Positions 12,981-45,427 of a DNA stretch of 64,000 nt are shown here, piece after piece. The stretch covers positions 1,376,001 to 1,440,000 of the forward strand of contig CBDCTJ010000007.1 in NCBI GenBank assembly GCA_965222115.1, given 5' to 3'. Numbering within the stretch: position 1 is the stretch's first letter; each line of letters begins with the position of its first letter. Source of the DNA: Planctomycetota bacterium (GTDB taxonomy: Bacteria; Planctomycetota; PLA2; JAEUHO01). Below the pieces are notes generated by a model, which saw only the letters and a program-made list of their open reading frames with translations, ran no database searches and was not told the origin of the DNA. The position numbers and the translations under genes are program-made.

Positions 12981-13035
12981 GCGAGTAGCCAGATGTGCCT
13001 TTGTCGGGCGGTAACTCGCTCCGAGTAAGTGCCTC
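12981..13035 (-). repeat. Right arm of imperfect inverted repeat
   Basis: Reverse complement matches 5850-5904 at 45/55 nt; further weaker match of 13232-13310 to 5735-5815. Confidence 0.85.
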
Positions 13036-19784: not shown

Positions 19785-19964
19785 TAAGGGGAGTTCGATC
19801 TGCGACCGTAGCTGGGGTGCGCCAATTGCGTCTCCACGACGTTTGTTCGCAATCGCTTCGCGGCGTCACGCAGCGGTCATTGACCACGGCGACAGGCCCG
19901 CGAGCCGCGTGAAAAGAATTCGAACGGGTTGATTTCAACTCGTCTGCTGAAGGAGAGCCATCCC

Positions 19965-21590: not shown

Positions 21591-21709
21591 GTCGGGATCA
21601 CTTTAAAACGGCAGCGCGGCTCGCCCGGGCCGCTCCCCTCGTTCAATTTATTTACAGTTTGACCTTGAAGGACGCAGCGCGTCTTTGCCTTCCTGGAGAT
21701 TCACCAACC

Positions 21710-22000
21710 ATGGCTATTCATCCCCTTGACGATCGCATCGTTGTAAAGCCGGTCGACGCCGAAACCAAGTCCGCGGGTGGCATCTTGCTTCCCGATAGCG
21801 CCAAAGAGAAGCCTCAGCGTGCCAAGGTTGTAGCTGTTGGCGAAGGTCGATTGACCGACAGCGGCAAGCGCGTGGCCCTTTCGGTTAAGAAAGGCGACGA
21901 GATCCTTTTCGGCAAGTACGCTGGCACGGAAATCAAGTGGCAGGGAACGGAATACAAGATCCTGCGTGAGAACGAAGTTCTCGCCATCATCGAAAAGTAG
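21710..22000 (+). CDS. groES: Co-chaperonin GroES
   Basis: [29 protein letters not shown]. Confidence 0.98.
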
Positions 22001-22065
22001 GAACGACAAGAAGTCGTTGCCTCCCTCGTACCGTTAATCGATTTCAAGAAACAGGACCCCTCCTC

Positions 22066-23673
22066 ATGGCTAAGCAATACCTCTACGACATTGAAGCGCG
22101 CCAGCGCATTGCCAGCGGTGTGAAGCAACTCGCCGACGCGGTGCGCGTCACGTTGGGACCCGCGGGACGCAATGTGATTGCTCAAAAGTCCTTCGGCAAC
22201 CCCACCATCACGCGTGACGGGGTAACCGTGGCCAAAGAAGTCGAGTTGGTAGACCCATTCGAGAACATGGGCGCCAAGCTCGTGACCGAAGCGGCTCAGA
22301 AGACCAACGATGTCGCAGGCGACGGCACTACGTCGTCCACGGTGTTGACCGACGCGATTCTTCGCGAAGGTCTCAAGGCCGTGGCTGCCGGCGCGCAGCC
22401 CATCGCACTGAAGCGCGGAATCGACAAAGCGGTTGAGGCCGTTGTGGCGCGCATCGAATCGATGGCGAAGAAGGTCACGACACTTGCCCAGAAGGCTGCT
22501 GTTGCCACCATTTCCGCCAATCACGACACCGAGATCGGCGATCTCTTGGCCGAGGCGGTGGACAAGGTGGGGCGCGATGGCGTCATTACGGTTGAAGAGG
22601 GCAAGACCACCGAAACTGTGCTCGACTTTGTTGACGGTATGCAGATCGACAAGGGATTCCTGTCGCCCTACTTCATCACCGACACCAAGGACCTCACGTG
22701 CGTGCTCGAAGACGCCTATGTATTGCTCTACGAGAAGAAGCTCAGCAATCTGCGCGACTTGATTCCCGTCCTTGAAGCTGTCGCCCACGCCGGTCGTCCG
22801 CTCTTGGTGATTGCCGAAGACGTTGAAGGCGAATGCTTGGCCGCGCTCGTGGTCAACCGTTTGCGTGGTGCGCTCAAGGTTTGTGCCGTGAAGGCGCCCG
22901 GCTTTGGTGATCGTCGCAAGGCCATGATGGAAGACCTTGCCGTGCTTACTGGCGGCACGTTCATTAGCGAAGACCTCGGTCTCCAGCTCGACAACGTAAC
23001 GGTCAAGGAACTTGGCACGGTCAAGAAGGCCATTATCAGCAAAGACGACTGCACGCTCAGCGAGGGTGCTGGCAAGAAGAAAGCCATTCAGGCTCGTATT
23101 GCGCAGATTCGCAATCAAATCGAAGCATCCACGTCGGATTACGATAAGGAAAAGCTGCAAGAGCGCTTGGCCAAGCTTCAGGGTGGCGTAGCGGTCGTCA
23201 AGGTCGGCGCGGCAACCGAACTTGAACTCAAGGAACGCAAGTACCGCGTGGAAGACGCTCTCAATGCCACACGCGCTGCCGTGGAAGAGGGCATTGTGCC
23301 TGGCGGCGGAGCCACGTTGATTCGTTGCATTGAGGCGCTCAGCAAGCTCCGCGTGCGTGGTACCGATGAGAAGATGGGCGTAGACATCATTCGCAAGGCG
23401 CTTGAGGCCCCGCTTCGTCAGATCGCAAAGAATGCCGGCGAAGTGGGTGCCGTCATTGTGGACGAGGTGCTAAACGGAAAGTCCACCCACGGGTGGGACG
23501 CGAAGGACCGCAAGTTCGTCGATATGTACAAGGCAGGCATTATTGACCCCGCGAAGGTCGTGCGCGCCGCACTTCAGAACGCCGCGTCGATCGCAGGCAT
23601 GATTCTCACCACCGAAACGCTGATCACCGACCTCAAGGACGAGGACAAGTCGGCGGTTGGCGCCGAGTTGTAG
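22066..23673 (+). CDS. groEL: Chaperonin GroEL (copy 2)
   Basis: [35 protein letters not shown]. Confidence 0.98.
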
Positions 23674-23674
23674 C

Positions 23675-23740
23675 GTCGCAGCAATCGGGTCGCGGCAGTC
23701 GGGTCGCAGCAATCGGGTCGCAGCAATCGGGTCGCAGCAA
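23675..23740 (+). repeat. 14-bp tandem repeat (gtcgcagcaatcgg) x~4.7
   Basis: Directly visible; one unit has two substitutions. Confidence 0.95.
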
Positions 23741-23814
23741 ACAATGCGTACGGTTCGCAAGCATTGATTGTTCAGCAGAATAACAATCCTCAAACTCCAC
23801 GGTAGGATCGCGTC

Positions 23815-24969
23815 GTGCCGAACAACGGAAAACGTGATTACTACGACGTACTTGGCGTGTCGCGAGACGCGTCCGATCAGGACGTAAAAAAGGCCTATCG
23901 GCGTCTCGCGCTCAAGTACCACCCCGACAAGAATCCGGGTGATGACGAAGCGGCCGCACGTTTCAAAGAAGCGGCGGAAGCCTATGACGTGCTTTCCGAT
24001 TCCGAAAAGCGCGCGCGCTATGACCAATACGGTCACGCGGGTGTCGATGGCCAAGTCGGGTTCTCCGACGCATCCGACATCTTCGGTGCGTTTAGCGAGA
24101 TCTTTGGCGACTTCTTTGGTGGCGGACGACGGTCGCGCGTGGCGCGTGGAGCCAGTCTGCGCGTAGAAGTCGTCGTCCCGTTTGAAGAAATGGCCGAGGG
24201 CATCACCAAAACGCTCTCGCTCAAACGTCGCGTTCGATGCGATACGTGTGAGGGCGCCGGTTCCGAAGACGGTCGCCCACCGGTGTCTTGTCCCACATGT
24301 GGGGGCGGTGGTTACGTAGCAACCAACCAAGGCTTCTTTTCCATGCGCCGCACCTGCCCGCGCTGCCACGGCGGTGGGGGCGTGATTGAACGGCCCTGTA
24401 AACGTTGTTCCGGCGAGGGACTCGTTGCGGGCAAACGTGAAATCGAATTGCAAATTCCCGAGGGCATTCACGACGGCGTTGTGTTGCGCATGACCGGCGA
24501 AGGCGAGCCCGCGCCGCGCGGTGGTCATCCCGGCGACCTCAACGTGATTGTGCGCGTGCGTGATCACGACCTCTTTGTGCGTTCCCCGGAAGATCCTGCC
24601 GACTTGTTGATGGCCGTGCCGGTACCGGTAACAACGGCGATTCTCGGTGGTCACGTCGAGATTCCGTCGTTGCTTGGAACGGTTACGCTCGATGTGCCGT
24701 CGGGAACCAAGCCCGGTGCGCTGTTGCGCGTGCGCGGCGCAGGTCTGCCACGCTTTCAACGTAGTGGCCGCGGTCACTTGTATGCCCGTATCACCTACGA
24801 CGTTCCGTCCCGTCCGAGTCGCAAGATGAAGAAGGCGCTTGAGGCCCTTCGCGAATTGGAACAACACGAGTCGGGCCCGGCTCGACGTGCGTTTGCCGAC
24901 GATGTTCGTCGCTATGAACAGCAGCGCGAACGCCGCGCTCGTAAGAACGCCAAACACGCCTCCGACTAG
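23815..24969 (+). CDS. dnaJ: Chaperone DnaJ
   Basis: J-domain with HPD, four CxxCxGxG zinc motifs; GTG start. Confidence 0.97.
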
Positions 24970-24984
24970 GCGCGAGAATGAACC

Positions 24985-25686
24985 ATGAGTGACGCAGAAA
25001 CACCTGTATCCGGTAAAGACAAGAGGGCCGACGCCGAGTCGCCGATTGGCCGTGCCGATGAATCAACGGATGCGGCGGGCGCCAACGATGCGCCCGCACC
25101 GAACGAAGACACAGGCGCAGTTGACGCCAGCAAAGACACCCCTCCGCTTACGACCGAGCAAGAGCTCGAGCAGGCCAGGGAAGAAATTGAGGAGCTTGGC
25201 AACAAGTTGCGCCGCGTTGAGGCATCGTTCCTCAACGAAACCAAGCGCATGCGCAAGAACGCGGAGAACCAACAAAAGTTCGCCATCGAGCGTGTGATTG
25301 TGGATCTCTTGCCGGTTCTGGATGCACTCCACAGCGCGCGCGCGGGCTTTGAGCGTGTGGGCGAAGACGAAGGCTCCGCCATTCGTGGGCAGATGATCGA
25401 GGGTATGGACCTAATCGAAAGGCAGTTCTCCACCGTTTTGTCGCGCCACGGTGTGGAGCCCATCGACGCGATGGGTACTGCATTTGATCCCTCTGTTCAC
25501 GAGGCCATGATGGTGCTTGAGCAAGAGGGCGTGGACGTGCAGACGGTGACCGAAGTATTTCGTCCCGGATACACACTTCACGGTCGCGTGGTGCGGCCCG
25601 CGCAAGTGGTGGTGGCTAAGCCGGCCACGCCGTCGGGGCCATCCGATTCATCTGATGCGGCGGAAGTGGGTGAGGTGAACGAGTAG
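24985..25686 (+). CDS. grpE: Nucleotide exchange factor GrpE
   Basis: LLPVLDAL, FDPSVHEA, GYTLHGRVVRPAQVVV. Confidence 0.95.
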   Translation: MSDAETPVSGKDKRADAESPIGRADESTDAAGANDAPAPNEDTGAVDASKDTPPLTTEQELEQAREEIEELGNKLRRVEASFLNETKRMRKNAENQQKFAIERVIVDLLPVLDALHSARAGFERVGEDEGSAIRGQMIEGMDLIERQFSTVLSRHGVEPIDAMGTAFDPSVHEAMMVLEQEGVDVQTVTEVFRPGYTLHGRVVRPAQVVVAKPATPSGPSDSSDAAEVGEVNE

Positions 25687-31811: not shown

Positions 31812-33389
31812 ATGAACGGACGACCCGCCCTTGCATTGTTGATCTTCGTGAGCCTTTTGATGTTGGCTCCGCATACCTCCGCTAAGGACGAACCCCTGCA
31901 TCTCGAGGGAAGTAGCGCAACGATTCAGGCGCCGCCATCTAGTTGGGCGCACACCAAGCACGACGAGCAAGCGGGGCAAATCGGTTGCACTTGGACCTAC
32001 AAGGGAAGTGGTGCTGTGGTCTCAGTGCTTGTCTTCCCCGTGCGGCGCGAAGGCACGGCCAAGGCGTTGCTCCGGCAAGCGGTGGATACAGCGGTCCGCG
32101 GGCGTACGCGCAGCGGCTTTGGCATGCTCGACCAAAAATCGTTTCAGATCCTCGGGCGCGATGGAAGCGACGCACGCATTGAGATTGCGTTGGCGAAAGA
32201 GAAGGCGCTCGGTCACGCGCGACTTCTACGCATTGCCGATGCGCAATGGGCATTTGCGTGGGGCTATGCGCCCGAGAAGGCACCTGCCGATGTGGCCGGT
32301 CTCATCAAGCGTGTGGTGACGAGTCTACAAACCACCGATCCAGCGCTGTTCACACTGCGATTCGACGAGCGTCCCACGTTTTCTCGCGAAGTCGTGACGG
32401 TCAAGGGCGAGGAGGCGATTCGCCGCGAACACATCATTGCCCTGCAACTGCTCTTAGAGGCCTCACGTGGAGAGCGCTATCCGGTAGCCGTGCGTCCCTT
32501 GTTGCGCAAGGCGCTGGTGGATGACGCTCGACGATCGAAGTCGAAATGGCGTGATGGGTTTCGAGAAGCACTTCGTTCGGTGCGAAAGGCGGAGCATCAA
32601 CCGCTTGACGTACGCCGTAAGCTCTTTACCGAATGGGGTACGGCAATCTTCGCTGGTTATGTTCTTCGCTCCGTGCGACGTGAACTCGCCGGCATGAAAG
32701 TCACTACGATCTGGGAGAAGCTAAGTGCACCCGTAGCAACGCATAAAGGTGAGTCGCTCAAAACCTGCGACTACTCCGCCCTGGCAGAAATGGCATCGTT
32801 CTTCGCGTCACTAGGACTGGATAAGGGCGTGCCCGTGAGCGACGAGATCCAAGCGAGCCTCAAGAAGTCGCTCGCGAAACGTTGGACGTCCCTCTGCGAT
32901 CGCGCGGGATTCCCGGATTCGCCTGCCAAGAACAAGCAGGCCGAACCAAAGAAAGACGATGCCGATAGCCAGTCCAAGGATGCAGACGATCCGAGTAAGA
33001 GAAACGAATCGCCGAAGAAAGACGAATCGCCAGCACTTACCGACGATCAGAAAGCCGCACGCGCCGAAGTCGAACGCCTGCAACACGCCGATCGTCAATG
33101 GGCCACGCTTCGCTACGCCTGGGACCGCGCCGCGCCCGAAGCACGTTTGGCGTTTCGCAAGGCGTTGGTCAAACGTGTGTTTGCGGACAGCGAGGAGAAA
33201 TCGAAGGCAATTGATGCGCTCAAGAACCGAGCTGCTCTCAAGCGTTGGTTTGAGGCGCAGGATGCGGAACAAGCGCCGAGTGCAGATGATATTGTGCGTC
33301 GCATGATGGAAATGACGGGGGAAGAGCGAGAGGGACTGATCGAGATGCTGGGGGTGGGGGACGCGGATGACTTGAGGTTTGGGTGGTAA
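31812..33389 (+). CDS. Hypothetical secreted protein
   Basis: Signal peptide (..APHTSA), long ORF with host-like codon usage. Confidence 0.7.
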   Translation: MNGRPALALLIFVSLLMLAPHTSAKDEPLHLEGSSATIQAPPSSWAHTKHDEQAGQIGCTWTYKGSGAVVSVLVFPVRREGTAKALLRQAVDTAVRGRTRSGFGMLDQKSFQILGRDGSDARIEIALAKEKALGHARLLRIADAQWAFAWGYAPEKAPADVAGLIKRVVTSLQTTDPALFTLRFDERPTFSREVVTVKGEEAIRREHIIALQLLLEASRGERYPVAVRPLLRKALVDDARRSKSKWRDGFREALRSVRKAEHQPLDVRRKLFTEWGTAIFAGYVLRSVRRELAGMKVTTIWEKLSAPVATHKGESLKTCDYSALAEMASFFASLGLDKGVPVSDEIQASLKKSLAKRWTSLCDRAGFPDSPAKNKQAEPKKDDADSQSKDADDPSKRNESPKKDESPALTDDQKAARAEVERLQHADRQWATLRYAWDRAAPEARLAFRKALVKRVFADSEEKSKAIDALKNRAALKRWFEAQDAEQAPSADDIVRRMMEMTGEEREGLIEMLGVGDADDLRFGW

Positions 33390-33612
33390 CGTACGGATTC
33401 GTACCGGGAGCAAATGCGCAACATCACAATTTGTGCCGGGAGCGAATGCGCGGAGAGCCTCACGTTCCCAGCCCTCCCCTCCCAGGGGGAGAGTGGAAGC
33501 AAGTATGCGCGGAATTCTCGTGCTGGAAGGCACAGAGCCTTTCCACCCTCCGTCGCGACCCTGCCACCGCCCCGGTTGGTATCATTCCCCGCCCTGTCTC
33601 GGAGGACCCTTG

Positions 33613-35241
33613 ATGCGCTCAACCCAATCAACGCTGTGGCGAACGGTCACATGCGGCCTCGCACTTGCATTTGCCATTTCATTGGGAGCATGCGGCGGCG
33701 ATTCCGGTGGTGGTGACTCGGCCGACGGCGGGAAGAGGCTGACTGTTGAATTGCGCTACGGAAACAACTCGCGGCCCTACATGCCGTGGCCCGAGGACGT
33801 GGCCAAGCAGTTGGCGGGAGCCATGGAGAGTGCGGGCATTGATGTGAAACTTCGGAAAGAAGAGTGGAACCCCTTCTTGGATCAAGTGAAGAACGGCGAA
33901 CACCAAATGGCGATCCTCGGTTGGTCCGCCGACGTGGCCGATCCCGACAATTTCCTCTATGTCTTGCTCGATAAGGACAATGCTCGTCCCGGCAGCGCCA
34001 ACAATATCAGTTTCTACGACTCCGAAGAAGTCCATCAACTACTCACCAAGGCCCAGCGCATCGGTGACAAGGCTGAGCGCATCAAGCTCTACAAGAAGGC
34101 GCAAGAGATTATCTTCGACGACGTGCCCATGATGCCGTTGGTCTACAACCTGAAACTCCACGCGCATCGCAAAGAAGTGTCACCTCTTGAGGTGCAGCCC
34201 GTTACGCATCCCCTGCTGCGACTGATCAAGACGCCCCAGGACGGAGACCTTGTGTATCTGCGCGGCAGCGATAGCGAGATGCTGGATCCCGCCGATGTTA
34301 CGGATGGCGAAAGTTCCAAAGTCATTGAGCAAATCTATGACACGTTGACGCGATTCAAGTCGGGTACGAGCGACGTGGAGCCTTCGCTTGCCGAGTCCTG
34401 GACGCACAATGATGATCGCACGCAGTGGACGTTTCGCATTCGAGGCGGCGTCAAATTTCATGACGGCACGCCCGTGAACGGCGCAGCGGTCGTCAATGCC
34501 TTCGAGCGTCAACGCGACGAGAAACACCCGCATCATTTCCCCGATGGCACGTGGAGCTACTGGAAAGACAACTTCAAGTTCGTGGACAAGGTTCGCTTGG
34601 GCGACGATCCCATGGACGTTGTGTTCGAGCTCAATCGCGCGGCGCCGCCGTTTTTCCTGTCGTTGCTTGCCATGTTTACCACGTCCATTCCATCGCCGAC
34701 GGCACTCGAGCTCCACGGCAAAGACTTCCGCCGCAACCCGGTGGGATCAGGCCCCTTTCGATTCGTTTCTTGGAAATCGGCCGTTGAGATCAAGCTCGCG
34801 CGCAATGACGACTACTGGGACGGCGCGCCGGCCATTCAGTCTGTTTCATTCCAAGTTTCCCGCGATCCAACCGTGCGCGCTGAACGCTTGGCGTCTCACC
34901 AGCGCGCGGACATCATCGACAATCTCGATCCCCTCACGGTCGAAAAGCTCGCCGCCGACCCGGGCGTAACGATTGAGAAAATCCCCGGCCTCAACGTGTG
35001 CTATGCGGCCATGAACACACAAAAGCCCCCCTTCGACAACAAACTTGTCCGCCAGGCGATCGCGCATCTCGTAGACAAAGACCGCATTGTCAAAATCGTC
35101 TACCGCGGCGAAGGCAAGCCCGCCACGACCCCGCTTCCTCCTACGTTATTTGGTCACAATAGCGACATCGTGGATCGCAAGCGCGATGTGAAGAAGGCGA
35201 AAGAATTGCTGAAGCAGGCGGGGTATGGGGTGGGGGATTAG
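33613..35241 (+). CDS. dppA: Peptide ABC transporter substrate-binding lipoprotein (DppA family), circularly permuted
   Basis: GGAGGA RBS, lipobox LGAC; DppA C-terminal motifs (RPYMP, GWSADVADPDNF, LYKKAQEII) precede N-terminal motifs (LDP, IYDTL, PSLAESW, GVKFHDG, PVGSGPF, AKELLKQAGY). Confidence 0.88.
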   Translation: MRSTQSTLWRTVTCGLALAFAISLGACGGDSGGGDSADGGKRLTVELRYGNNSRPYMPWPEDVAKQLAGAMESAGIDVKLRKEEWNPFLDQVKNGEHQMAILGWSADVADPDNFLYVLLDKDNARPGSANNISFYDSEEVHQLLTKAQRIGDKAERIKLYKKAQEIIFDDVPMMPLVYNLKLHAHRKEVSPLEVQPVTHPLLRLIKTPQDGDLVYLRGSDSEMLDPADVTDGESSKVIEQIYDTLTRFKSGTSDVEPSLAESWTHNDDRTQWTFRIRGGVKFHDGTPVNGAAVVNAFERQRDEKHPHHFPDGTWSYWKDNFKFVDKVRLGDDPMDVVFELNRAAPPFFLSLLAMFTTSIPSPTALELHGKDFRRNPVGSGPFRFVSWKSAVEIKLARNDDYWDGAPAIQSVSFQVSRDPTVRAERLASHQRADIIDNLDPLTVEKLAADPGVTIEKIPGLNVCYAAMNTQKPPFDNKLVRQAIAHLVDKDRIVKIVYRGEGKPATTPLPPTLFGHNSDIVDRKRDVKKAKELLKQAGYGVGD

Positions 35242-35455
35242 AAGGTCTTACAACCTATTGGGCACCCCGTCTTACTGCTTGTTTCTTGGCATTGGAATTG
35301 GCGTCGTTGGCACGCTACTGCTCACAGATTCGAAGCAGGCTACGGAATTCGACGCAGGTCGCGCGTTCTCGGGTTGAGTCAACGTCTTTGGAGAAGTTTT
35401 CGGCTGGGGGCCGAGATTTCATCCTCGACACAATCGGCGCAACACAATCAGTCAC

Positions 35456-35561
35456 CGGTCCCGAAGGGACATACGCGGATAGCCCAGGGTGCACAACGAG
35501 CGTAGCGAGTTGAAACCCTGGGACAAAACGCAACAACAATCTCAGCGCCCTGTAAGGGCGC
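35456..35561 (+). repeat. REP-like composite palindromic element, copy 1
   Basis: Hairpins GTCCC-GAA-GGGAC, CCCAGGGT...ACCCTGGG, GCGCCCT-GTA-AGGGCGC. Confidence 0.85.
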
Positions 35562-35594
35562 AAGCGTCTCCGCCAACCGATGCAACGTCATGAG

Positions 35595-36047
35595 TCAGTC
35601 CCAAATGTAGCGCTCGTCGTACACAACAAGATTTTGCTCAAACAGTTTCAGCAACTCTTCCTTGTACGTCCATTTGCGGTGGTGTTCTCGTTGGTGCTCA
35701 ATGTAGTCAATGACAGGTTCTTTGTGACTTGGGCTCACCGAGAAGGCGCCGTATCCATTCTGCCATCTAGAGTCGGCGAGTAGCGGTACCGAATCTCGGA
35801 TCCATCGCGTCGATCCAGTCTTGATGTTCTGAATGACCTTTGAAATGGCCTTGGTACGAGGAAGACTCAACATCAAGTGGATATGGTCATCTACGGATCC
35901 TGCAGACAGGAGTACTCCCCCAAGTCTTCGGACGATTCCTCCGATGTAGCTGTGCAGTTCACTCCGCCACGCGTCGCCTAGCAATGGCTTCCGGCCCTTT
36001 GTACTGAAGATTACATGAACCAAGATGTTGGAGAGTGATTGCGACAT
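35595..36047 (-). mobile_element. tnpA: IS200/IS605-family Y1 HUH transposase (REP-associated tyrosine transposase-like)
   Basis: HVIFSTK, DHIH (HUH), WQNGYGAFSVS, YIEHQREHH; no tnpB; flanked by palindromic repeats. Confidence 0.92.
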
Positions 36048-36210
36048 GCACCTGCCTCAGAGTCGAACCCGTCTTGAATCTCGGCGCTCGACGTCGACGT
36101 TGCTAGATGCCGGCCCCAACACACTCTTCGCACAACTCCGTTGCAGGTAACACGTCGGGACGGATTCTTCATCCACCAGAATGGTTGGGATGCCTCTGCA
36201 AGTCGCACTA

Positions 36211-36300
36211 CCGCCCTTACAGGGCGGCGGATTATTGGGGAACCTCATACCAGGGTTCGGAAGCCTCACCCTTCGCTATCAGCTTCCATGCCTTCGGCAT
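36211..36300 (-). repeat. REP-like element, copy 2 (inverted relative to copy 1)
   Basis: CCGCCCT-TAC-AGGGCGG, CCAGGGT...ACCCT, GCTATC, ATGCC-TTC-GGCAT in mirror order. Confidence 0.8.
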
Positions 36301-36519
36301 GGCCCTGTCTTCCATATGCCCAAGGACGAGTAACGGGTATTGGCCTAGCCCAACCACCAGGCATCCTTGGAAACGTCTCCGCGCATGTTTCCGCCGTCAA
36401 TACTACGAACGCGCCCTAGGAGCTTCATGATCTGTCCCTGCCACCTCTCTTGATCTGGGCAGAGCCACATCTTGTGTCAAGGCGTATCGTCAACACCTCC
36501 GAGTAACACAACCCTTAGA

Positions 36520-36640
36520 CGGTCCCGAAGGGACATACGTTGATAGCTCGGAGTGCCCGCGAGGAAACAGTGCGGGAGCGCAGCGAACTGAAACCCGGGG
36601 ACCTCGTGAATGAAACACAAACTGACCGCCCAGTATGGTT
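36520..36640 (+). repeat. REP-like element, copy 3 (degenerate)
   Basis: 20-nt identity cggtcccgaagggacatacg with 35456-35475; gagcgcagcgaactgaaacccgggga resembles gagcgtagcgagttgaaaccctggga. Confidence 0.8.
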
Positions 36641-36770
36641 GGACGGGGCGTGCGCAGGTTGAGATTCTGAATACCAGGGATCGGGCGAGGCGAAGGATTG
36701 AGATTCAGCTTCCGAAAGAGCGGGCAAGCAACAAGCGTATCGGCTAATTCAATATCGAATCAACCGCCCA

Positions 36771-38597
36771 CTACTTTAGGCGTGACAATTGTATGTCCAC
36801 AGCTGTCACTTTGTTCGGAAACACTTGAAACTCGGTGCTCGCTTGTTCGTACCCTGGCATCATGATTGCCAATAGATACTCCCCAGCCGGGCAACTTGTC
36901 AGCCACTCCCTTTGTTTGGGTGGAGTCCTCGTGTTGGATAGTGGAACTTGAATTCTTGCTGGGCCAAACTTCCCTGTGATGTTGTTCTTCAGTAGGGCCA
37001 TGAGCCGGGAACCGTAAATTCGTTGTCCACTGGCATTCTTTACTCGTACGAAGAACCCAGTGGGAGGTGGAAGCCGTACTTGATATTTGAGATTGTTCCC
37101 GGCTTCAATTTTTAGCTCTTCTCTCCTAACACCGTCTCGTACCCAAACTTTCAATTCGCGATCGGGAACACCTTTGAACGACCATTCGTTTCTTGTCTTG
37201 GAGCGCAGGCCGTCCAACAAGAATGAGAAATTGTTCTCCAGCCGAACTTCGAGGCTTAACTCGCTGGGAATCGCGACTTCTTTCGGATAATCATGCTTCA
37301 CGACTATCGAAAGTTCGCGGCGACTGAAAAAACCATGCCACGGAACTCTGACTCTCTCCCATCGAGCATCTTCATTGTGCTTCCATAGGCGCACCGTCGT
37401 GGCGATGGTGCCATACCCTGGGGAACTCACCTCGAGTTTCGCGTTTTGAGGTAAATCCGCCGAGCTGGTCCTAGATCGTCTTACGAATCCGGAGTACCTA
37501 GCTCTCCCAATTGATTGTTCACTTTTGAAGCCGTCTCGGCTTGAGCGCCACACGTCTTTCCAAAGGACGCGTTCCGTAACGAGCTCACATTTTGTTTGAC
37601 CGCCCGCCAACTTCTTCAGGCGCAAGACAGGCATCCCTGCGTCGAGTGGCTTGTTGGAATCCACCTCTTCTAATTCTAAAAAAAAAGCTCGCAATTCGTG
37701 CAGCGTAAACAGCACGTTTGCTCGACCAACTCTTACTACTTTGCTACTTAGAGACACAGTTCCACGTCCGGCATCGCCGCGGCTAGTACCGGCATATCCA
37801 GACGCACAGCAGCATAGTTGCACAGCCGATAGGTTGTTGGAAACTGATATTGAAAAGCTGCCATCGTTAAGGGTTCTCGTACTTCGCATGTTTACAGCAG
37901 CCGGTGCGGAGCCATTTCCTTCGTCGCTCCATGAACCTGAACAGCGAGTAATCAATTCTTGGCTTGCTCCAATGGGCAGGCAGCATACCTGGGCTTTTGC
38001 GATAGGCGCGCCAGAATCATCCACAACTCTGCCCGACACGGTTGCACCTAACGGGTCCATCCCAATCTCGTGGGCACCAGAATCAGAGATGACGCTTAGT
38101 ACCTCGCTTTGCATCTCCTCAATCGCGTCTTCGTACCCAGCCGATCTAACGATTAGTTTCAAGACCTCTCGTGAACTGGGGATTTGGGCGGTCCCCTTTT
38201 CGCCCGATGTTCGACGGAAAACTACATCTTCATTCTTCAGCGCAAGCAAGTTAGATGATCGCCTGAGTCCCCAGATATGCGCGTTGGAGATTGGGAGCTT
38301 CGTTTTTCGGTCAACTACCGAGACCGCGAAAGAAGTCCCTGCTTCGCTCGGCTCAGGCATATCCTCGCTTGCGTCCTGCAACGAATCTACCACGCTCCCC
38401 TCAAGTGTGCTGTTCGACGAAAGTCCTACATCGTCTCCCAAGATCGCCGTGAGGTGACTATATCGGTCGTCGGCCCGCGCTGATCTCGTAGCTGTCGTGT
38501 CTTGGATCAGCGCCAAGTACAGAAAGTAGCCCGCGCAGGCAGCCATGACTCCTACACATATGAGCAGTCGGGGCGACCGCTCAAATAGCGTTCTCAT
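36771..38597 (-). CDS. Membrane-anchored carboxypeptidase regulatory-like domain protein
   Basis: N-terminal TM; VSVVDRKTKLPISNA, VSGRVVDDSGAPIAKAQV, SAGY/SPGY/MPGY; ATGA-coupled to the upstream gene. Confidence 0.75.
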   Translation of the reverse strand: MRTLFERSPRLLICVGVMAACAGYFLYLALIQDTTATRSARADDRYSHLTAILGDDVGLSSNSTLEGSVVDSLQDASEDMPEPSEAGTSFAVSVVDRKTKLPISNAHIWGLRRSSNLLALKNEDVVFRRTSGEKGTAQIPSSREVLKLIVRSAGYEDAIEEMQSEVLSVISDSGAHEIGMDPLGATVSGRVVDDSGAPIAKAQVCCLPIGASQELITRCSGSWSDEGNGSAPAAVNMRSTRTLNDGSFSISVSNNLSAVQLCCCASGYAGTSRGDAGRGTVSLSSKVVRVGRANVLFTLHELRAFFLELEEVDSNKPLDAGMPVLRLKKLAGGQTKCELVTERVLWKDVWRSSRDGFKSEQSIGRARYSGFVRRSRTSSADLPQNAKLEVSSPGYGTIATTVRLWKHNEDARWERVRVPWHGFFSRRELSIVVKHDYPKEVAIPSELSLEVRLENNFSFLLDGLRSKTRNEWSFKGVPDRELKVWVRDGVRREELKIEAGNNLKYQVRLPPPTGFFVRVKNASGQRIYGSRLMALLKNNITGKFGPARIQVPLSNTRTPPKQREWLTSCPAGEYLLAIMMPGYEQASTEFQVFPNKVTAVDIQLSRLK

Positions 38598-39154
38598 TGA
38601 CACGTGCAGCCGGAATTTGAAACACCAGTCCAAATGGGGGGGTCTAGTGGCATCGGCGGGGTCCACACGATGCCGACGTCCTCGCAAGTCAAGGAGGATC
38701 CGATGCACTCGCCCTCACAGCCCTTCCAAAGCGTGTTCCCACTCTGAGGGTCACTGTATCGAACTGAATCGCACAGCCAGGGTCCGTTCCCGCCGACTTG
38801 GTCGGGATAGTGCCAACCAAAGTGAGTCCCGCTAATGAATATGGGGCAGGTACACGTCGCCCGAGTCACCACCGTGCCCGCTAGCCCTGAGGGATGTCCG
38901 GCTGGTACCGTGTATCCTGGGAAGTCCTGAAGTTGACAATCCGGAACGGACCCTCCCGGGCAGGGTCCATCGCAGTCTATGACCTGAAGAAAGTCAAAGA
39001 AAATTGGCGTCCCTCCGATAGTCAACCAGAAGCCTTCGTAGTGCAGCGTCTTGCCGCGGCACTGGCCAGATTGCGCGGACGCTATATTAAACCCACCGAG
39101 CGCAATCGAACATATCGCGACCAATAAGGGAGCAATTCCTATCCAAAACCTCAT
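38594..39154 (-). CDS. Secreted cysteine-rich protein with two 6-Cys modules
   Basis: AGGAGGA RBS, signal peptide ending ASA, 12 Cys in the mature part. Confidence 0.8.
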   Translation of the reverse strand: MRFWIGIAPLLVAICSIALGGFNIASAQSGQCRGKTLHYEGFWLTIGGTPIFFDFLQVIDCDGPCPGGSVPDCQLQDFPGYTVPAGHPSGLAGTVVTRATCTCPIFISGTHFGWHYPDQVGGNGPWLCDSVRYSDPQSGNTLWKGCEGECIGSSLTCEDVGIVWTPPMPLDPPIWTGVSNSGCTCQ

Positions 39155-39175
39155 TCGTGTATCCTCCTGCTAGAT

Positions 39176-39535
39176 TTATGCCCTAGACTGACTAGACGCA
39201 CGCCAAATTTCGAGACTCGTGATAACTACTAGGCCGCTCACTACCATCGCTATCCCATCTGACATCTTAGCCGCCCCAAGGCAGCCACATTGACCGACAG
39301 GTCGCGGGTGCAGGAGTCGTGCGAAGGCTGCGCCAGCGTATGCGAAAGCCAGCACAAAGGCAGTGGGCCTTGCAGTAATCGGTACGGCAATTCCGACGGC
39401 GCACAACAGCTCAAGTAAGGCGACTTCCGTGTTTGGTCCCTGGCGATCGGGAGATGATCCGTCCCCTGAGAGCTTTTCATAGACTGCCCACACTAAGAAC
39501 AGGACTAAGGACCAACGCAGGGCGTGCCAGTACAT
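39176..39535 (-). CDS. MauE/DoxX-family membrane protein
   Basis: AVYEKL, ALLELLCAVG, CGCLG motif; GAGGAG RBS. Confidence 0.8.
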   Translation of the reverse strand: MYWHALRWSLVLFLVWAVYEKLSGDGSSPDRQGPNTEVALLELLCAVGIAVPITARPTAFVLAFAYAGAAFARLLHPRPVGQCGCLGAAKMSDGIAMVVSGLVVITSLEIWRASSQSRA

Positions 39536-39795
39536 TTGAGACTCCTCACTCCTCAACCCTATACGAGCCTTTGGGACGAAGCGCCGAAAAGCTGAGAGAA
39601 ATCCACACGGATCTAAATTTATGTTTTGAACCCGCTCCATAGGCCGATGTGACTAGGCAAGATCACTTGAGATATCTAGCACTGAGCCTGGACATAACAC
39701 TACATCCGTGAATCTAGGCCCTTGCCACTCACCGCGGAGTCCACATTGGCGCAAAAGGTCGCGCTGCTTAGGTTGAGGCGCCTACGTTCTTGTGC

Positions 39796-40191
39796 TCAAT
39801 TCAAAATCGAATCATCCGCCCACTCCGGCGTCCACACGATTTCGCACGGTTGCAGCGTGTCAAACTCGTCCCACGAGAGATTGAACGTGAAGATCCAGTC
39901 GGCGACATCCAGGCGAATGTCGAGATCGAGCACGAACGAGTCTAACTTGCGATACGTGGACGTGCGGGCGCGCCGGAGTTTGCGAATCAGCTTGCGCATA
40001 TCGGGGTCTTCGCCTGGGACCGCAGCCGTTCCGAGTTTGCCGTTGCCGCAATTCCAAATGAACTCGGCGACTTGGAGATTGGTCTCCTTGTCCCACTTGA
40101 GGAAGCCGGGTTCAAAGGCAATGAGCGTGAATTGCACGACTGCATTGGCCTCCTTGAGAACAACGTCCTCGGGCTTGATGAACTTCTTCAT
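39796..40191 (-). CDS. Small hypothetical protein (131 aa)
   Basis: AGAAGGGG before ATG 40191; host-like codon usage; Trp/acidic-rich. Confidence 0.65.
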   Translation of the reverse strand: MKKFIKPEDVVLKEANAVVQFTLIAFEPGFLKWDKETNLQVAEFIWNCGNGKLGTAAVPGEDPDMRKLIRKLRRARTSTYRKLDSFVLDLDIRLDVADWIFTFNLSWDEFDTLQPCEIVWTPEWADDSILN

Positions 40192-40261
40192 ACCCCTTCT
40201 ACGCACGAGTGCGCGAAAGGTAACATATCGCCACAAAGCCCGGGCGCATCTCCGAAGACGG

Positions 40262-42706
40262 CTACTTGGCCACCCCCGGCACAAGTCCACCGAAAACCGC
40301 GCTCGGCACCCAATGCGTGGCTTCGTCGTAGGCGCGCATGGCCTTCGTACTGGGAGGCAACAGTTCAAATTTGATCCAGCGCCGCATGCCGCGGAGGAGG
40401 TCATAGCATGATTTATTGAGCGCCGCATTGCTGTCGAGTTGCGTAATGATGAGGTCGTAAATGCCATCAATGCCTCGCAACCAATGCGGCCGGCTCGTTG
40501 CGCGAGGTTCGAATGGGGCCAAACGTGCCATGATCGATCCGTTTCCTGAAGAGAGTAGCTGCGACACATCGTTGCGAGCATCAGATTGCGTCCGAGCGAG
40601 GCCTGCCGTCGCGAACCAATACCACAGGCCCTCTCGCCGCTGTGCGCGCGATTGCTCGAGATACGTCGTAATGCGCGGATCGTTTACAGCGCCCAGTCGT
40701 GCAAGCCCGGCGTAACTGCGGTCTGCCAACACCATGGCGGCGGAGACAGTATCGCCCGCACGAAAGTGTTTCCATGCCGCGCGCGAGTCCTTTCGCTCCT
40801 GAATGTGGCGCTCACCCTCTTCGGCCTCGAAGGTCGCGTCTGCGTTGTGCCACAAGAACTCAAGCTCATTCGCCCCGGTAGCGCGAACTACAAGCGCTGT
40901 CAATGCGTCGATCGATCTGGCTTCATCATCGTGATAATGGACACCCTTTATTTCAGGGTCGGGGGCGAGCCTACGGAGTTCTGCGTCGATCGTCTTGTTC
41001 TGTACGTACGTAAGTGATCGACGATGTCGAGACTTCCAGTAGACCGAGCCCTCACCGCGAAACGCCTTGAGCATGACATCTTCATGTCCGGTCACGCCCA
41101 GGCGTGCCAATGCCGCAAGAAGCGAGGGCTTGATCCCTGGCTGCGATTCTAAAAGTGTCGTAATGAGTGCAATCGTTGCGTCGCGATCCCGCACTTCAAG
41201 CAGCGATAGCAATCGGAGCCAATGAACTTCATCGCCGCGGCTCTGTTTCAAGTCAGGTAAGCTTGAGAGTCGCTTTGCAAGTCGTTTGGCACGCTCACGC
41301 GAAAGACTCTCGGGATCCGCATTCACGTGCCACTCAGCGAGTTTACGAATGTGCGTCGTCGATTCGGGGTCCATCGTGTTCCACAGCGCGTCGCTCAACA
41401 TTCGTAGATGATTCGGTGTGATGTTTACGCCAAACATGCGGCGCATAAGTTCTCGCATGCCGGGTGTGAACTGCACAGACGCACGCGATCGCCGATCCAT
41501 CGGCCCATTCAAGATTCGTTTCGCGGCTCGCGTGGCCGATTCCTTGGGCAATGCACGCCACGACATGAGTTCTACAAACGCATTGACGCGAGCCGATCGG
41601 CTGGCATCTTGCTTCTGGTGGCGCTCTAGACGCTCGCGATAGACCTCGGGCTTTCCCAGCAACGCAAGTGCGGTTGCCGCGCACCAACTGCGTTCGTCGC
41701 GGTTCTTTGTCAGCGCCAACACTTGTTCGGCGTCTTCTTTGGAAAGCCTCGCACGATGTCGCATGCTCCATGTGCCGAGGTTCACGATGTGAGAGGCAAA
41801 CGCTCGCGTCGGCGCGTCAAACGCGTCAACGAATGTCCTGAGAAATGGAAGGTCCTTTTCTGCCGGTTGATAACGCATGAGCGCGAGTTGAATCCACGAC
41901 TTTGGCGCAGACACACTCAATGGCTTGTTCTTTGGATCGCCGATATCGAATCCCCGTTTGCGGTCATTCAACGAACGAAAGAGCTCCAGGATCCCCTCCG
42001 GGAGGCCACCGTCGCTGGGCACTTGGGTTCGCGGCGAGACCGAGGCGAGTGTGGGCGGCTTCGTGTTGGCACGTTCCGCACGCAAGCGCTCCAATCCGTA
42101 TAGCAGTCCCACGAGAATCGCATCTTGATGTTTGAACTCGGAGTCGAACTCGCAAACGTCAATGAATGCGTCGAGCAACTGTTCAAACATAGGTGTGGGG
42201 CTTGACGCCAATAGCGGGAGAAGTCCGGCAAGCTGGCGTGGCGTGAGGCAGCTTCGTACTCGCTTGTAGTCGATTCGTTCGCGCTGTTTTTCCGTGGCGG
42301 TAGCGGCTAGCTTAAGGTGTGAAGGAATGTCTTCGGACCGCAACGTGCCATTGGACTTGTCTATGGCCCACCAAGGCGCACGGGAGATAGCCTCCAGCGA
42401 ACCACTGAGCAGTTTCCGCTTGCGCGCCATTCCCTCGGTGTCGAGATTCGGGAAGTCCAGTCCCCGCGCCGCTTGTCTCGCTAGTTTGAGATCCTCGCCC
42501 TCGAAGGCGGCGCGCAGCACGTTTCGCTTGTGGCTTGCGTAAGTCTCTCGGCTACGCCACCACTGGCGAACTTCTTTGTGTTTGGCATGCGCTTCGTCGA
42601 GTAGCGCGCGAAACGTGTCGAGTTCACCTTTGGCGCTGGCCGTGTGAGGCGGCGCCAACAACAGGAGGACAGAAATTAGACCCATTCGCGCAAGGGAGAT
42701 ACGCAT
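40262..42706 (-). CDS. Large secreted helical hypothetical protein
   Basis: Signal peptide (..PHTASA), long Ala/Leu/Arg-rich helical ORF. Confidence 0.7.
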   Translation of the reverse strand: MRISLARMGLISVLLLLAPPHTASAKGELDTFRALLDEAHAKHKEVRQWWRSRETYASHKRNVLRAAFEGEDLKLARQAARGLDFPNLDTEGMARKRKLLSGSLEAISRAPWWAIDKSNGTLRSEDIPSHLKLAATATEKQRERIDYKRVRSCLTPRQLAGLLPLLASSPTPMFEQLLDAFIDVCEFDSEFKHQDAILVGLLYGLERLRAERANTKPPTLASVSPRTQVPSDGGLPEGILELFRSLNDRKRGFDIGDPKNKPLSVSAPKSWIQLALMRYQPAEKDLPFLRTFVDAFDAPTRAFASHIVNLGTWSMRHRARLSKEDAEQVLALTKNRDERSWCAATALALLGKPEVYRERLERHQKQDASRSARVNAFVELMSWRALPKESATRAAKRILNGPMDRRSRASVQFTPGMRELMRRMFGVNITPNHLRMLSDALWNTMDPESTTHIRKLAEWHVNADPESLSRERAKRLAKRLSSLPDLKQSRGDEVHWLRLLSLLEVRDRDATIALITTLLESQPGIKPSLLAALARLGVTGHEDVMLKAFRGEGSVYWKSRHRRSLTYVQNKTIDAELRRLAPDPEIKGVHYHDDEARSIDALTALVVRATGANELEFLWHNADATFEAEEGERHIQERKDSRAAWKHFRAGDTVSAAMVLADRSYAGLARLGAVNDPRITTYLEQSRAQRREGLWYWFATAGLARTQSDARNDVSQLLSSGNGSIMARLAPFEPRATSRPHWLRGIDGIYDLIITQLDSNAALNKSCYDLLRGMRRWIKFELLPPSTKAMRAYDEATHWVPSAVFGGLVPGVAK

Positions 42707-42795
42707 CAGCAAGCTCCGCAATTCAATTGGCCAACGGCGTAGCATACTCGCCCAAGGTGGTGGGAATAAACGCGGCGCGGTATGGTCGCGTCGCG

Positions 42796-43815
42796 ATGTT
42801 GCTCTACGTGCTCCGCCGTCTGGTACTGACGATTCCCCTGCTGCTCGGGGTGTCGTTTCTCGTTTTCGTGGTGGTCACGAGCATTCCCGGTGACCCGTGC
42901 CTGCGGAAGTTGGGCGCCAAGACCAGTCCCGAGGCTTTGGCTGGATGCCGAACGGCGTTGAAGTTGGATCGTCCCTTCCCGGAACGCTACGCCCACTTCG
43001 TTACGAATGCGGCTCAGCTCGACTTTGGCGAAGACCTCGTCACGGGCGAAGACGTAGGACCGGTCATCATGGAGCGCTTGGCGCCCACGGTTGAGTTGAC
43101 GCTCGTGGCGTTGTTTCTTGCCTTCATACTCGGCACCTGGATTGGCACGCGCTCGGCGCTTCGACCGGGCACATGGTTTGATGCATTTGGTCAAGTCGTG
43201 AGCTTGGCGGGCGTTTCAATCCCCGTGTTTTGGTTGGGCCTCATGTTGTCGGCGTGGCTCGGTTCGCGTCTCGGGTGGTTGCCATTCAGTGGTTGGCACG
43301 CCGATCAAATCGGACCCGACGTCAACTATGCGACGGGCTTCTATATGACTGAGTCGCTGTTCCGACTCGAATTGGGCTCGTTCTTTCGTGCGCTCAAACA
43401 CATCGCGCTGCCCGCAATGACGCTGGCGACGATTCCGCTTGCAACCATTACGCGCATGACGCGTTCGTCGGTGCTCGAAGAAGTGGGTCAAGACTATGTA
43501 ACGACAGCGCGCTCCAAGGGACTAAACGAACGGGTGGTGATTGGGCGACACGTTCGGCGCAACGCGTTAATTCCCGTGGTTACCATCACCGGGCTTCAAC
43601 TTGGGTCGCTTCTTTCGGGCGCGGTTCTTACGGAGACCATTTTCAGTTGGCCCGGACTCGGGACACACATGGTGGAAGCGGCCGACGCGCGAAACTATCC
43701 CGTGCTCATTGGCTGCATGATGCTGTTTGTTGTGATTTTCATTCTGGTAAACTTGCTCGTGGACGTGCTCTATCACTGGATCGATCCCCGTATGCGCGCG
43801 GCGAGTGGCGTCTAA
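42796..43815 (+). CDS. dppB: Peptide ABC transporter permease
   Basis: YVLRRL, IPGDP, SIPVFWLG, RMTRSSVLE, DYVTTARSKG, ETIFSWPGLG, IDPRMR. Confidence 0.95.
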   Translation: MLLYVLRRLVLTIPLLLGVSFLVFVVVTSIPGDPCLRKLGAKTSPEALAGCRTALKLDRPFPERYAHFVTNAAQLDFGEDLVTGEDVGPVIMERLAPTVELTLVALFLAFILGTWIGTRSALRPGTWFDAFGQVVSLAGVSIPVFWLGLMLSAWLGSRLGWLPFSGWHADQIGPDVNYATGFYMTESLFRLELGSFFRALKHIALPAMTLATIPLATITRMTRSSVLEEVGQDYVTTARSKGLNERVVIGRHVRRNALIPVVTITGLQLGSLLSGAVLTETIFSWPGLGTHMVEAADARNYPVLIGCMMLFVVIFILVNLLVDVLYHWIDPRMRAASGV

Positions 43816-44701
43816 GGTGGTGGGCGAGGTTCCTACGGGCCGAATTGCACAGTTGTGGCATCGATTCCGTTTGGGCATACGCGCACTTTGCAAGGATCGC
43901 GGTGCGCTCGTCGGTCTCGTGTTGATCGGGCTTGTATTGTTGATGGCCGCTACCGCCGACTTTGCCACCTGGAACCCGAGTCAACTCGACTACGACATCG
44001 ACTTCGCACCCGCTCCGCCTTCCGGAACGCACTTGCTCGGTACCGACGCCGCGGGCTTTGATGTGTGGTCACGACTCTTGCATGGCTCCCGCCTTTCGCT
44101 GCTAACGGGCGTGATGGCGATCGTGCTCGCGCTTTCCATCGGTGTTCCCATGGGTGCGATCAGTGGTTATGCCGGCGGGTGGACCGATAGCATTTTGATG
44201 CGCGCCGTCGACGTCATGTTGGCGTTTCCAAGCGTGGTATTGGCCGTTGGCATCGCCGCGGTCTTGGACAAGCGTGCGATGTCCACATTGATCATATCCG
44301 TCGGTATTGTAAACATTCCGACCATCGCCAGGCAGGTTCGCGCATCGGTATTGCAGGCCAAGAGCCACGAGTATGTGACGGCCGCGAAGGCCATGGGCAT
44401 GTCGCCGCTTCGCATTCTTCGACGCCACGTTTTGCCCAACTGTTTGGCGCCCATCATTGTCTTGAGCACGCTTGGCGTTGGGAGTGCGATTTTGACGGCG
44501 GCGGGATTGAGTTTTCTCGGTCTCGGTCCCGATGCGCGCGTGGCCGAATGGGGCGTCATGCTCACCGACGGCAAACGCTTCATCTCACGACCCGAACAAT
44601 GGGTAATCATTCCGCCGGGCGTTGCCATTGCCATCACGGTTCTCGGGTTCAATCTGGTGGGGGACGGCCTACGACGAGCGTTGGATCCGCGCTCGCGATG
44701 A
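43805..44701 (+). CDS. dppC: Peptide ABC transporter permease
   Basis: HLLGTD, GSRLSL, EYVTAAKAMG, HVLPN, LSFLGLG, GDGLRRALDPR. Confidence 0.95.
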   Translation: MASKVVGEVPTGRIAQLWHRFRLGIRALCKDRGALVGLVLIGLVLLMAATADFATWNPSQLDYDIDFAPAPPSGTHLLGTDAAGFDVWSRLLHGSRLSLLTGVMAIVLALSIGVPMGAISGYAGGWTDSILMRAVDVMLAFPSVVLAVGIAAVLDKRAMSTLIISVGIVNIPTIARQVRASVLQAKSHEYVTAAKAMGMSPLRILRRHVLPNCLAPIIVLSTLGVGSAILTAAGLSFLGLGPDARVAEWGVMLTDGKRFISRPEQWVIIPPGVAIAITVLGFNLVGDGLRRALDPRSR

Positions 44702-44812
44702 GCACGATCGCAATATGACGGTGGCATGACGGAGCAGCGTTCTGCTAGGGGGTTGCGACCCGGCGACGAACGTACGGCGTAGCCCGTGGCTTACGCGGAG
44801 AGACTCGTGAAG

Positions 44813-45427
44813 ATGATGCAGGAAATATCACGGACCAACAAGTGGCGCGCGCCTTTGCTCGCGATGCTCTTGATGATGTCGTGCGTGGCGTGTCAAACGG
44901 CAGACAGTTTCAAAGACGTGGAAAAGGAGCCGGGTCAGCGTTCCGACGGGTTTCCAGCACCGAACCGCGGTGAGGTGTGGGATGCGGCCGTGAGTGTCTT
45001 GCGCACGCAAGGCTATCGGCCCGATCTTTCGGCCTCGTCGAAGGGCGAGGGCGTCGTGCGCAGTGAGTGGTTGCACTCCATGGCGCCGTTCTCACGGTCG
45101 GGTTGGAGGGAGCGCGCTATTGTGCGCATCGTCCCGGCGGGCGAGCGCGACGGCTACTACCGTCTTCAGACCACCGTCACGCGACAAACCAACGACAACA
45201 TCAAGAACCCGAGTGATCGTGAAGATGCGGAGTGGACGCAGGCCAAGCGCAACCCCATGTCCGAGAACCTCATCAATCGTCGCATTGAAATGGAGTTCCT
45301 CTCAGGCGACGTGAGCAACAAATACCGCAAACGCCACGGCATGAAGAGCAAGCGCAGCGATCGACTGAGCGACGTCGAAGAAGACGACGACCTCTACGAA
45401 GAACGCAATAGCGACGAAGATCGGTAG
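44813..45427 (+). CDS. Hypothetical lipoprotein
   Basis: Lipobox-like CVAC; acidic tail. Confidence 0.7.
   Translation: MMQEISRTNKWRAPLLAMLLMMSCVACQTADSFKDVEKEPGQRSDGFPAPNRGEVWDAAVSVLRTQGYRPDLSASSKGEGVVRSEWLHSMAPFSRSGWRERAIVRIVPAGERDGYYRLQTTVTRQTNDNIKNPSDREDAEWTQAKRNPMSENLINRRIEMEFLSGDVSNKYRKRHGMKSKRSDRLSDVEEDDDLYEERNSDEDR

Follow-up and report, generated by a model that had tools for sequence, protein, structure and literature searches.

Natural circular permutation of a tethered ligand-binding protein of an ATP-binding cassette (ABC) transporter has a described precedent in Treponema pallidum Tp0684 (TpMglB-2), a lipid-tethered, cluster B sugar-binding protein for which the designation 'Type Ic / Cluster Bc' was proposed (PMC4990184). 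In it, three strands of the N-lobe are moved to the C-terminus and a fourth cross-over is added, the protein binds its ligand and closes on it, and the topology is common to a family of homologues; the authors (Brautigam et al. 2016) could not align the permuted part, considered its acquisition from another gene, and wondered whether tethering drives the topology (PMC4990184). The second point of reference is Escherichia coli DppA, a peptide-binding protein of the PF00496 family (family 5, or cluster C), in which R383 and D436 of the precursor (R355 and D408 of the mature protein) bind the dipeptide carboxyl and amino groups and a double charge reversal of these two residues abolishes binding and transport (PMC12136057, PMC8566422). 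Here we analyze a gene at positions 33613-35241 (+) of a 64,000-nt window (the whole stretch of DNA studied) from a Planctomycetota bacterium, whose product is a permuted variant of the PF00496 family and not a standard member of it. Taken as a whole, the evidence makes it highly probable that this product is a functional, lipid-anchored family-5/cluster C peptide-binding protein and a natural circular permutant of the DppA/OppA kind.

The swapped order of the two parts of the chain is apparent against three kinds of reference. In phmmer searches of the Protein Data Bank (PDB), the protein aligns to Helicobacter pylori DppA/HbpA (6ofq) in two blocks, residues 211-540 on chain positions 31-371 (i-E 8e-57) and residues 69-190 on positions 393-514 (i-E 2e-27), E-values because of which chance is excluded; on E. 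coli DppA (8z1y_F), residues 209-539 fall on 27-369 and residues 52-197 on 381-524, so that the order is reversed with respect to that protein, as a preliminary description made from the sequence alone had claimed. PF00496, the only significant Pfam family of the protein (there was no Peripla_BP-type match), is matched with E 3e-89 and 300.2 bits versus a cut-off of 32.4, again in two stretches, the best of which places residues 255-541 on positions 2-281 of the 368 in the profile. A hidden Markov model (HMM) of 535 positions built from 28 canonical-order relatives, the canonical HMM, matches residues 41-204 to positions 367-530 and then residues 209-539 to positions 41-366. None of the PDB chains, the Pfam profile or the canonical HMM is thus matched in canonical N-to-C order, and the alignment to PF00496 and E. 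coli DppA that had been proposed as a check gives the two blocks swapped, as expected; the old termini are fused and new termini opened after the AKELL helix, with the junction at 34225-34236, near the ~34230 first suggested. That the permutation is real and conserved is, in our assessment, virtually certain.

At the level of the gene, 33613-35241 (+) encodes a stop-free protein of 542 aa that is preceded by a ribosome-binding site, GGAGGA (33601-33606, +), 6 nt 5' of the ATG. Residues 1-27 (33613-33693, +) form a hydrophobic lipoprotein-type signal peptide that reads AISLGAC at residues 21-27 and ends in the lipobox LGAC, with the codon of Cys27 at 33691-33693; the gene therefore has its own ribosome-binding site and signal, and the motifs first quoted are all present in the translation in the order given. 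Bacterial lipoproteins follow a lipobox consensus rule, and by its lipobox Cys, invariant in a 51-sequence family alignment, the product is a predicted lipoprotein. A longer reading frame is possible from a TTG at 33379; 33613 is the likely start because homologues begin at the signal peptide. A flexible, Gly/Ser/Asp-rich tether (residues 28-40; 33694-33732, +) follows, in a region of low model confidence, and the canonical HMM match starts only at residue 41. Block 1 (residues 41-204; 33733-34224, +) is the former C-terminal third, which the junction IKTP (residues 205-208; 34225-34236, +), running from the old C-terminus to the old N-terminus, connects to block 2 (residues 209-539; 34237-35229, +), the former N-terminal two thirds. 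Block 2 ends with the helix KKAKELLKQAGY, and the new C-terminus consists of the tail VGD and a TAG stop (35230-35241, +). A match of residues 4-39 to the NCBIfam 'lipo-invert tail' model (E 0.47) was put down to signal-peptide noise.

Unlike in E. coli DppA, the chain starts at the equivalent of precursor position ~373 and ends at ~369, with the old termini fused by 4 residues and the new termini in the loop that leads from the AKELLKQAGY helix to the strand LTVEL. Every structural element is still present, and present once; what is altered is how the chain is connected and where the lipid anchor is attached. In the alignment to E. coli DppA, the strand that comes first after the tether (residues 44-50) falls between the AKALLKEAG helix and R383, in a region that is part of the lobe with D408/D436, termed domain III or C-lobe (PMC8566422, PMC12136057). 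We infer that, unlike in DppA, the anchor sits on the lobe that is C-terminal there; the earlier proposal that the lipid is attached to a different lobe holds in this sense, by homology mapping alone.

An AlphaFold2 model computed with a 51-sequence family alignment, also among the checks suggested at the outset, is confident, with a mean predicted local distance difference test score (pLDDT) of 92.5 and a predicted template modeling score (pTM) of 0.87; the 10-residue blocks of region 190-220, which span the junction, score 92-98, and pLDDT is below 50 only in the tether region (residues 26-35). The PDB matches shown by Foldseek are mostly cluster C peptide-, nickel- and opine-binding proteins of the DppA, GbpA, OppA and NikA types, headed by GbpA 3m8u and the DppA entries 6ofq, 1dpp and 5f1q (E 1e-27 to 1e-25), and identity to the top structural matches is 31-35%. 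Like E. coli DppA (1dpp, 1dpe, 8z1y), 6ofq and Haemophilus parasuis GbpA (3m8u), the protein belongs to the PF00496 family, keeps the ligand-binding Arg and Asp and, at least in its relatives, goes with DppB/DppC-type permeases.

The same architecture recurs far beyond this contig. Of the 120 relatives that scored best in a search of 5.8 billion clusters, ordered with the canonical protein P0112 as reference, 75 have the swapped order and the other 45 are collinear; 67 of the 75 are cut as in the 33613-35241 gene and 8 near position 285 of P0112, and the swapped relatives, at 50-83% identity, come from many independent contigs. A search with the junction region (residues 150-270) returned 33 matches with at least 97% coverage, all already known, most others reaching ~50% and P0321 76%. 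Permuted orthologues, which the preliminary description had expected in related genomes, were found in 20 of 80 loci fetched from contigs of the Genome Taxonomy Database (GTDB; one genome per species), all 20 titled Planctomycetota, Planctomycetia or Planctomycetales. That an assembler joined pieces of an ordinary dppA-like gene in the wrong order has next to no probability: the same order and junction motif recur in 66 further protein clusters, which come from independent contigs, and the same order in 18 further species-level genomes, at identities of 50-83%, and the reading frame carries a signal peptide where it now starts and a stop where it now ends. Across the 51-member family alignment mean column identity is 58%, and R54, P55, Y56, G103, W104, S105, D107, D110 and D112 are invariant. 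For the four pairs of loci that are closest to each other, the ratio of nonsynonymous to synonymous substitution rates (dN/dS) is 0.146, 0.156, 0.219 and 0.226, and it ranges over 0.18-0.58 in more distant pairs, where dS is near saturation; judged by these ratios, the family is under purifying selection.

Conservation extends to the residues that would hold the ligand. In the 8z1y_F alignment, R54, Y56 and D107 are the counterparts of R383, Y385 and D436 in the E. coli DppA precursor (R355, Y357 and D408 of the mature protein), so that the Arg and Asp that bind dipeptide in DppA are both aligned and, in the 51 members, invariant. Since these ligand residues are invariant and dppB and dppC adjoin the gene in relatives, the product is likely to be a peptide-binding, lipid-tethered partner of a DppBC-type importer. 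It would capture a di- or oligopeptide by Venus-flytrap closure, the start of the chain, formerly its last third, carrying the Arg and Asp that would clamp the peptide carboxyl and amino ends, and would deliver the peptide to the DppB/DppC permease, whose genes come immediately after in every relative with sequence there; its cellular role is probably ordinary peptide uptake. A functional permuted protein with a changed role, binding a non-peptide ligand or acting as a DppBC-independent receptor, with a topology tied to that change, is improbable. Such a shift would fit scores far below the DppA, OppA, NikA and GsiB equivalog cut-offs, a more divergent S2 region, the lack of ATPase genes in the locus, and the existence of family-5 proteins fused to chemoreceptor and kinase modules (Pfam annotation of longer homologues); it is opposed by the invariance, in 51 sequences, of the Arg and Asp that in E. 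coli DppA bind the peptide termini, by the tight coupling to dppB-dppC in 18 of 18 relatives, and by canonical sisters that hold the same operon position. As to the low scores, the matches to the NCBIfam models of DppA, NikA, SapA, GsiB and OppA each fall into two stretches and score far below the cut-offs (249.6 bits versus 1005 for the DppA equivalog NF043070), and swapped order alone lowers the score.

Coupling to the permease genes is tight in relatives, where dppB starts 0-67 nt after the stop of the binding-protein gene in 18 of 18 swapped loci with downstream sequence, at a distance of at most 9 nt in 12 of them, and where the conserved order is der, hyp576, binding protein, dppB, dppC, orf213, a THUMP-like gene on the opposite strand, and lon. 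In the window, the genes of the dppB-type permease (42796-43815, +; 339 aa, Pfam BPD_transp_1 and BPD_transp_1_N, start set by translation and relatives) and of the dppC-type permease (43805-44701, +; Pfam BPD_transp_1 and OppC_N, syntenic with relatives) lie beyond a separating block of 7,554 nt, which extends from the stop at 35241 to the dppB start at 42796 (35242-42795), is absent in all 18 relatives and has a G+C content of 0.525-0.557 versus ~0.59 in the surroundings; the operon is split by an insertion in this genome. One could suppose a rearranged gene in decay, whose order is real and whose product is non-functional at least in this genome with its broken operon, and it is in keeping with this that the 7,554-nt block, with its IS200-like element, parts the gene from dppBC only in this window, and that a scan of 33200-35700 found no promoter-like sites, the sigma-70-type scan being weak for this phylum (the same scan gave two terminator-like sites, both within the open reading frame (ORF) and fewer than in shuffles). 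Decay is nevertheless very improbable: the gene retains its ligand residues, the window protein and P0002 form a pair (86% identity over aligned columns) in which the end branch of the window protein is 0.068 versus a tree median of 0.16, dN/dS of the window gene versus loci L006 and L001 is ~0.18, though dS is saturated (~1.9), and purifying selection acts on the family as a whole. The clean ORF that had been held to argue against decay is indeed intact, its architecture is conserved, and dN/dS in the four close pairs is 0.15-0.23.

The origin of the clade was traced in a careful maximum-likelihood (ML) tree of 52 rows and 492 columns, with the permutant blocks put back into the canonical order of columns. 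All 37 swapped Planctomycetota rows fall in a single clade (support 100/99), which is sister (100/98) to 8 canonical rows, L020 and L023 among them, and the next branch out is also canonical. Among the canonical rows are loci L020, L021, L022 and L023, in the same synteny as the swapped loci, with der immediately before the gene in L021-L023 and, after it, dppB with dppC and/or orf213 in L020-L022. Given this sister relationship to canonical genes in the same synteny, the permutation arose in place, within a Planctomycetota lineage, at the ancestral der-sbp-dppB-dppC position. For both halves of the permutant the nearest canonical sequences belong to this one sister clade, and both are equally far from it (44-48% identity), which argues for self-duplication and not for a chimera of two paralogues. 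We regard an origin by duplication, fusion and truncation as moderately probable: a canonical gene would have been duplicated in tandem, the copies fused in frame, the signal peptide and tether of the second copy dropped, and the outer parts then lost. The canonical sisters are lipoproteins with long Gly/Ser tethers, the tether is absent from the permutant junction, and the fused junction is 0-10 residues long in permutants. Gene fission with re-fusion, or recombination between different paralogues, might have taken the place of single-gene duplication, and here the lack of any double-length close relative of the clade among the sequences found and the commonness of tandem arrays of separate family-5 genes (for example at L050 and L062) count in favor. 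Such a route is, all the same, unlikely, with both halves equally close to one canonical sister clade and with fused doubles that have a 6-residue joint and group with permutants, no search for split halves having been made.

A second cut site occurs within the same clade. We call the cut of the 33613-35241 protein (HMM ~366) type A and a cut at HMM ~275 type B; type B members are P0029, P0037, P0038, P0040, P0041, P0042, P0045, the shorter P0074, and loci L005 and L009. Their order is HMM 278-531 followed by 40-274, with new termini ~90 residues earlier than in type A, and they are 60-65% identical to the 33613-35241 protein, carry a lipoprotein signal and are likewise encoded upstream of dppB-dppC. 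The two types share the junction motif VTHPxLRL..P.DG.LVYLRG, and each is seamless at the cut site of the other; the type B cut lies in the loop before the strand ..IPGLNV, which, by its domain borders, we take to be at the DppA hinge. The ML tree nests type B within type A at two places, and approximately unbiased (AU) tests reject neither a single type B clade (p 0.17) nor a single type A clade (p 0.059). An independent character, the presence of a hyp576 homologue between der and the binding-protein gene, favors type A as one group: it is found in 16 of the 17 type A loci with upstream sequence (it was not detected in L011) and is absent from type B L009 and canonical L021-L023, where der directly adjoins. 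The two cuts go back either to two different trimmings of a double-length ancestor or to a second permutation of one permutant. A segment-identity test for a paralogous origin of the ~85-residue segment whose position differs between types A and B gave no signal (B2-A24 54.0%, B7-B2 51.9%, A24-A24 52.3%), and an AlphaFold2 model of type B P0045 from a 7-sequence alignment was unusable (pLDDT 64.2, pTM 0.47), probably because the alignment is shallow.

Several observations count against a functional peptide-binding permutant of the origin proposed here, or at least leave parts of that reading unsettled. Foldseek, which is order-dependent, aligned only ~350 of the 542 residues, the larger block, with a TM-score of 0.56-0.61 and a root-mean-square deviation of 1.7-2.5 Å. 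The gene lies 7,554 nt from dppB in the window, with minus-strand genes between, so that coupling in this genome is uncertain. No ABC ATPase gene of the dppD/F type was found nearby by Pfam in the 47 of 84 window ORFs that were scanned (those of at least 150 aa); in relatives, the conserved gene order shows none at the locus either, although their loci were not scanned for ATPases. The DppA equivalog score, 249.6 versus 1005, is too low to assign a substrate specificity. A search for longer homologues returned 19 matches, among which only P0121 is a tandem double, at 33% identity, the lack of others being weak evidence, and the AU tests give no order for the two cuts.

Permutation in family 5 is not confined to this clade. 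In an exhaustive phmmer search of 1.84 billion representatives, 15 proteins among the 150 best listed are permuted and 3 are tandem multi-copy, the list being biased to permuted forms since the query itself is permuted. Placed on the canonical HMM, the cuts fall at 366-370 (P0126, P0164, P0203, P0226 and P0235), 340-354 (P0127 and P0170), ~298 (P0147, from a cluster named Candidatus Methanofastidiosia archaeon at NCBI), ~190 (P0156) and ~153 (P0249, P0255 and P0191). P0191 (927 aa) joins a Peripla_BP_6 amino-acid-type binding domain to its permuted family-5 domain, and P0203 and the archaeal P0147 have a hydrophobic C-terminal tail besides the N-terminal signal. In a quick tree of 102 rows, in which long branches and compositional outliers were flagged, so that the exact count of origins is uncertain, the other permutants scatter among canonical clades, P0170 lying inside a canonical Planctomycetota group (Shimodaira-Hasegawa-like approximate likelihood ratio test (SH-aLRT) 99-100). 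A tree in which the 50 permuted rows are constrained to a single clade is worse by 653 log-likelihood units (p-AU 4.6e-6), which rejects one common origin for every permuted form. The Planctomycetota clade is one of several independent permutations in family 5, and starred branches of the quick tree force at least three further origins for the A-like cut.

The same search also brought up fused doubles of the kind that the duplication route would pass through. P0121 (1202 aa) contains two copies, 62-550 and 557-1041, which are 6 residues apart and each other's closest relatives, and it groups with the permutant P0249 (SH-aLRT 94, quick tree); P0187 (1137 aa) is a second fused double, and P0152 (2754 aa) holds four copies. 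The joint of P0121 (6 residues, HMM 533 to 48) is like a permutant junction, residues 46-541 of the window protein aligning to 396-883 of P0121. Unlike the window protein, P0121, P0187 and P0152 hold 2-4 complete copies, at 27-35% identity, and none of them is in the Planctomycetota clade. Loci L061, L070, L072-L074, L078 and L080, mostly of Chloroflexota/Anaerolineae, have stop-free stretches of ~1260-1350 codons, without set start codons, with a family-5 domain in the C-terminal half; at L061, two tandem family-5 copies lie in one frame.

A broader and rather doubtful proposition is that the cluster C fold is a permutation hot-spot, reached via fused doubles, at half a dozen loops, in several bacterial lineages and at least one archaeon, and that relocation of the tether was selected and did not arise by neutral drift. 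If this were true, the moved tether could, for instance, control how the permease encounters the loaded protein, and two different permutants would replace each other at the same operon position in one Planctomycetota clade. A lipobox-like Cys is present in 26 of 28 permuted proteins and 14 of 14 canonical relatives inspected; tethering therefore does not discriminate between the two.

Like TpMglB-2, the 33613-35241 protein is a natural permutant of a lipid-tethered ABC ligand-binding protein; unlike TpMglB-2, which is MglB-like and of cluster B, it belongs to PF00496, so that the phenomenon is shared by different families, and unlike in TpMglB-2 both blocks align cleanly and a canonical sister exists at the same locus. 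Full-text searches, with most subscription journals outside their scope, found no description of a permuted family-5/cluster C binding protein, and this conserved permuted clade of peptide-binding lipoproteins is apparently previously undescribed. Natural permutants with alignable canonical sisters are rare test cases for how permutations arise, and here a canonical sister in the same operon, two cut sites, fused doubles and further origins make the duplication-fusion-truncation model testable on real sequences; they also allow a natural test of whether docking to the ABC permease depends on where the lipid anchor sits on a binding protein. Binding proteins are routinely permuted artificially for biosensors, and the naturally tolerated cuts (near HMM 153, 190, 275, 298, 340-354 and 366-370) are candidate sites for such engineering. 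Annotation pipelines, to which such genes present two partial matches out of order, may flag genes of this kind as fragments or score them below cut-offs, as NCBIfam did here.

The insertion between the binding-protein and permease genes carries an IS200-like element (~35434-36556) with a Y1_Tnp transposase gene (35595-36047, -; Pfam E 1e-23). On either side of this gene lie 59-nt direct repeats, imperfect (35434-35492 and 36498-36556; 76% identity) and including the hairpin GTCCCGAAGGGAC, as well as 15-nt perfectly complementary inverted arms (35546-35560 and 36212-36226). The insertion also holds a gene for a CarboxypepD_reg/PEGA protein (36771-38708, -; Pfam), an 827-aa ORF without a Pfam family match (40262-42745, -) and small ORFs, one of which (39176-39640) has a weak match of MauE type (E 7.8e-5, below the cut-off); several of its minus-strand ORFs are unassigned. 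On the other side of the binding-protein gene, hyp576 (31812-33389) encodes a secreted-looking protein of ~525 aa without a family match, which is conserved at 25-31% identity in loci L001-L019 and L024 and for which the ESM Atlas was uninformative (best score 0.82). When hyp576, orf213 and the ORFs of the insertion were compared with Pfam at E up to 0.1, only the weak MauE and the PEGA/CarboxypepD_reg matches appeared, and Rfam gave 0 matches on the whole 64-kb window. The gene orf213 (44786-45427; 213 aa, no family match) is conserved after dppC; dppB-dppC is followed by it, not by dppD/F ATPase genes, and the order is the same in relatives and in canonical-order sister loci.

Elsewhere in the window, a chaperone cluster at 19929-25686 comprises GroEL-type genes (19929-21590 and 22066-23673), dnaJ (23815-24969) and grpE (24985-25686). 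The stretch 6001-14000 has a lower G+C content (0.507-0.552) and contains ORFs of 610, 368, 433 and 175 aa without a Pfam match at E up to 1e-5; it is possibly foreign DNA. Toward the end of the window, nuoB, C, D, E and F (NADH dehydrogenase) follow one another in order at 58100-63050.

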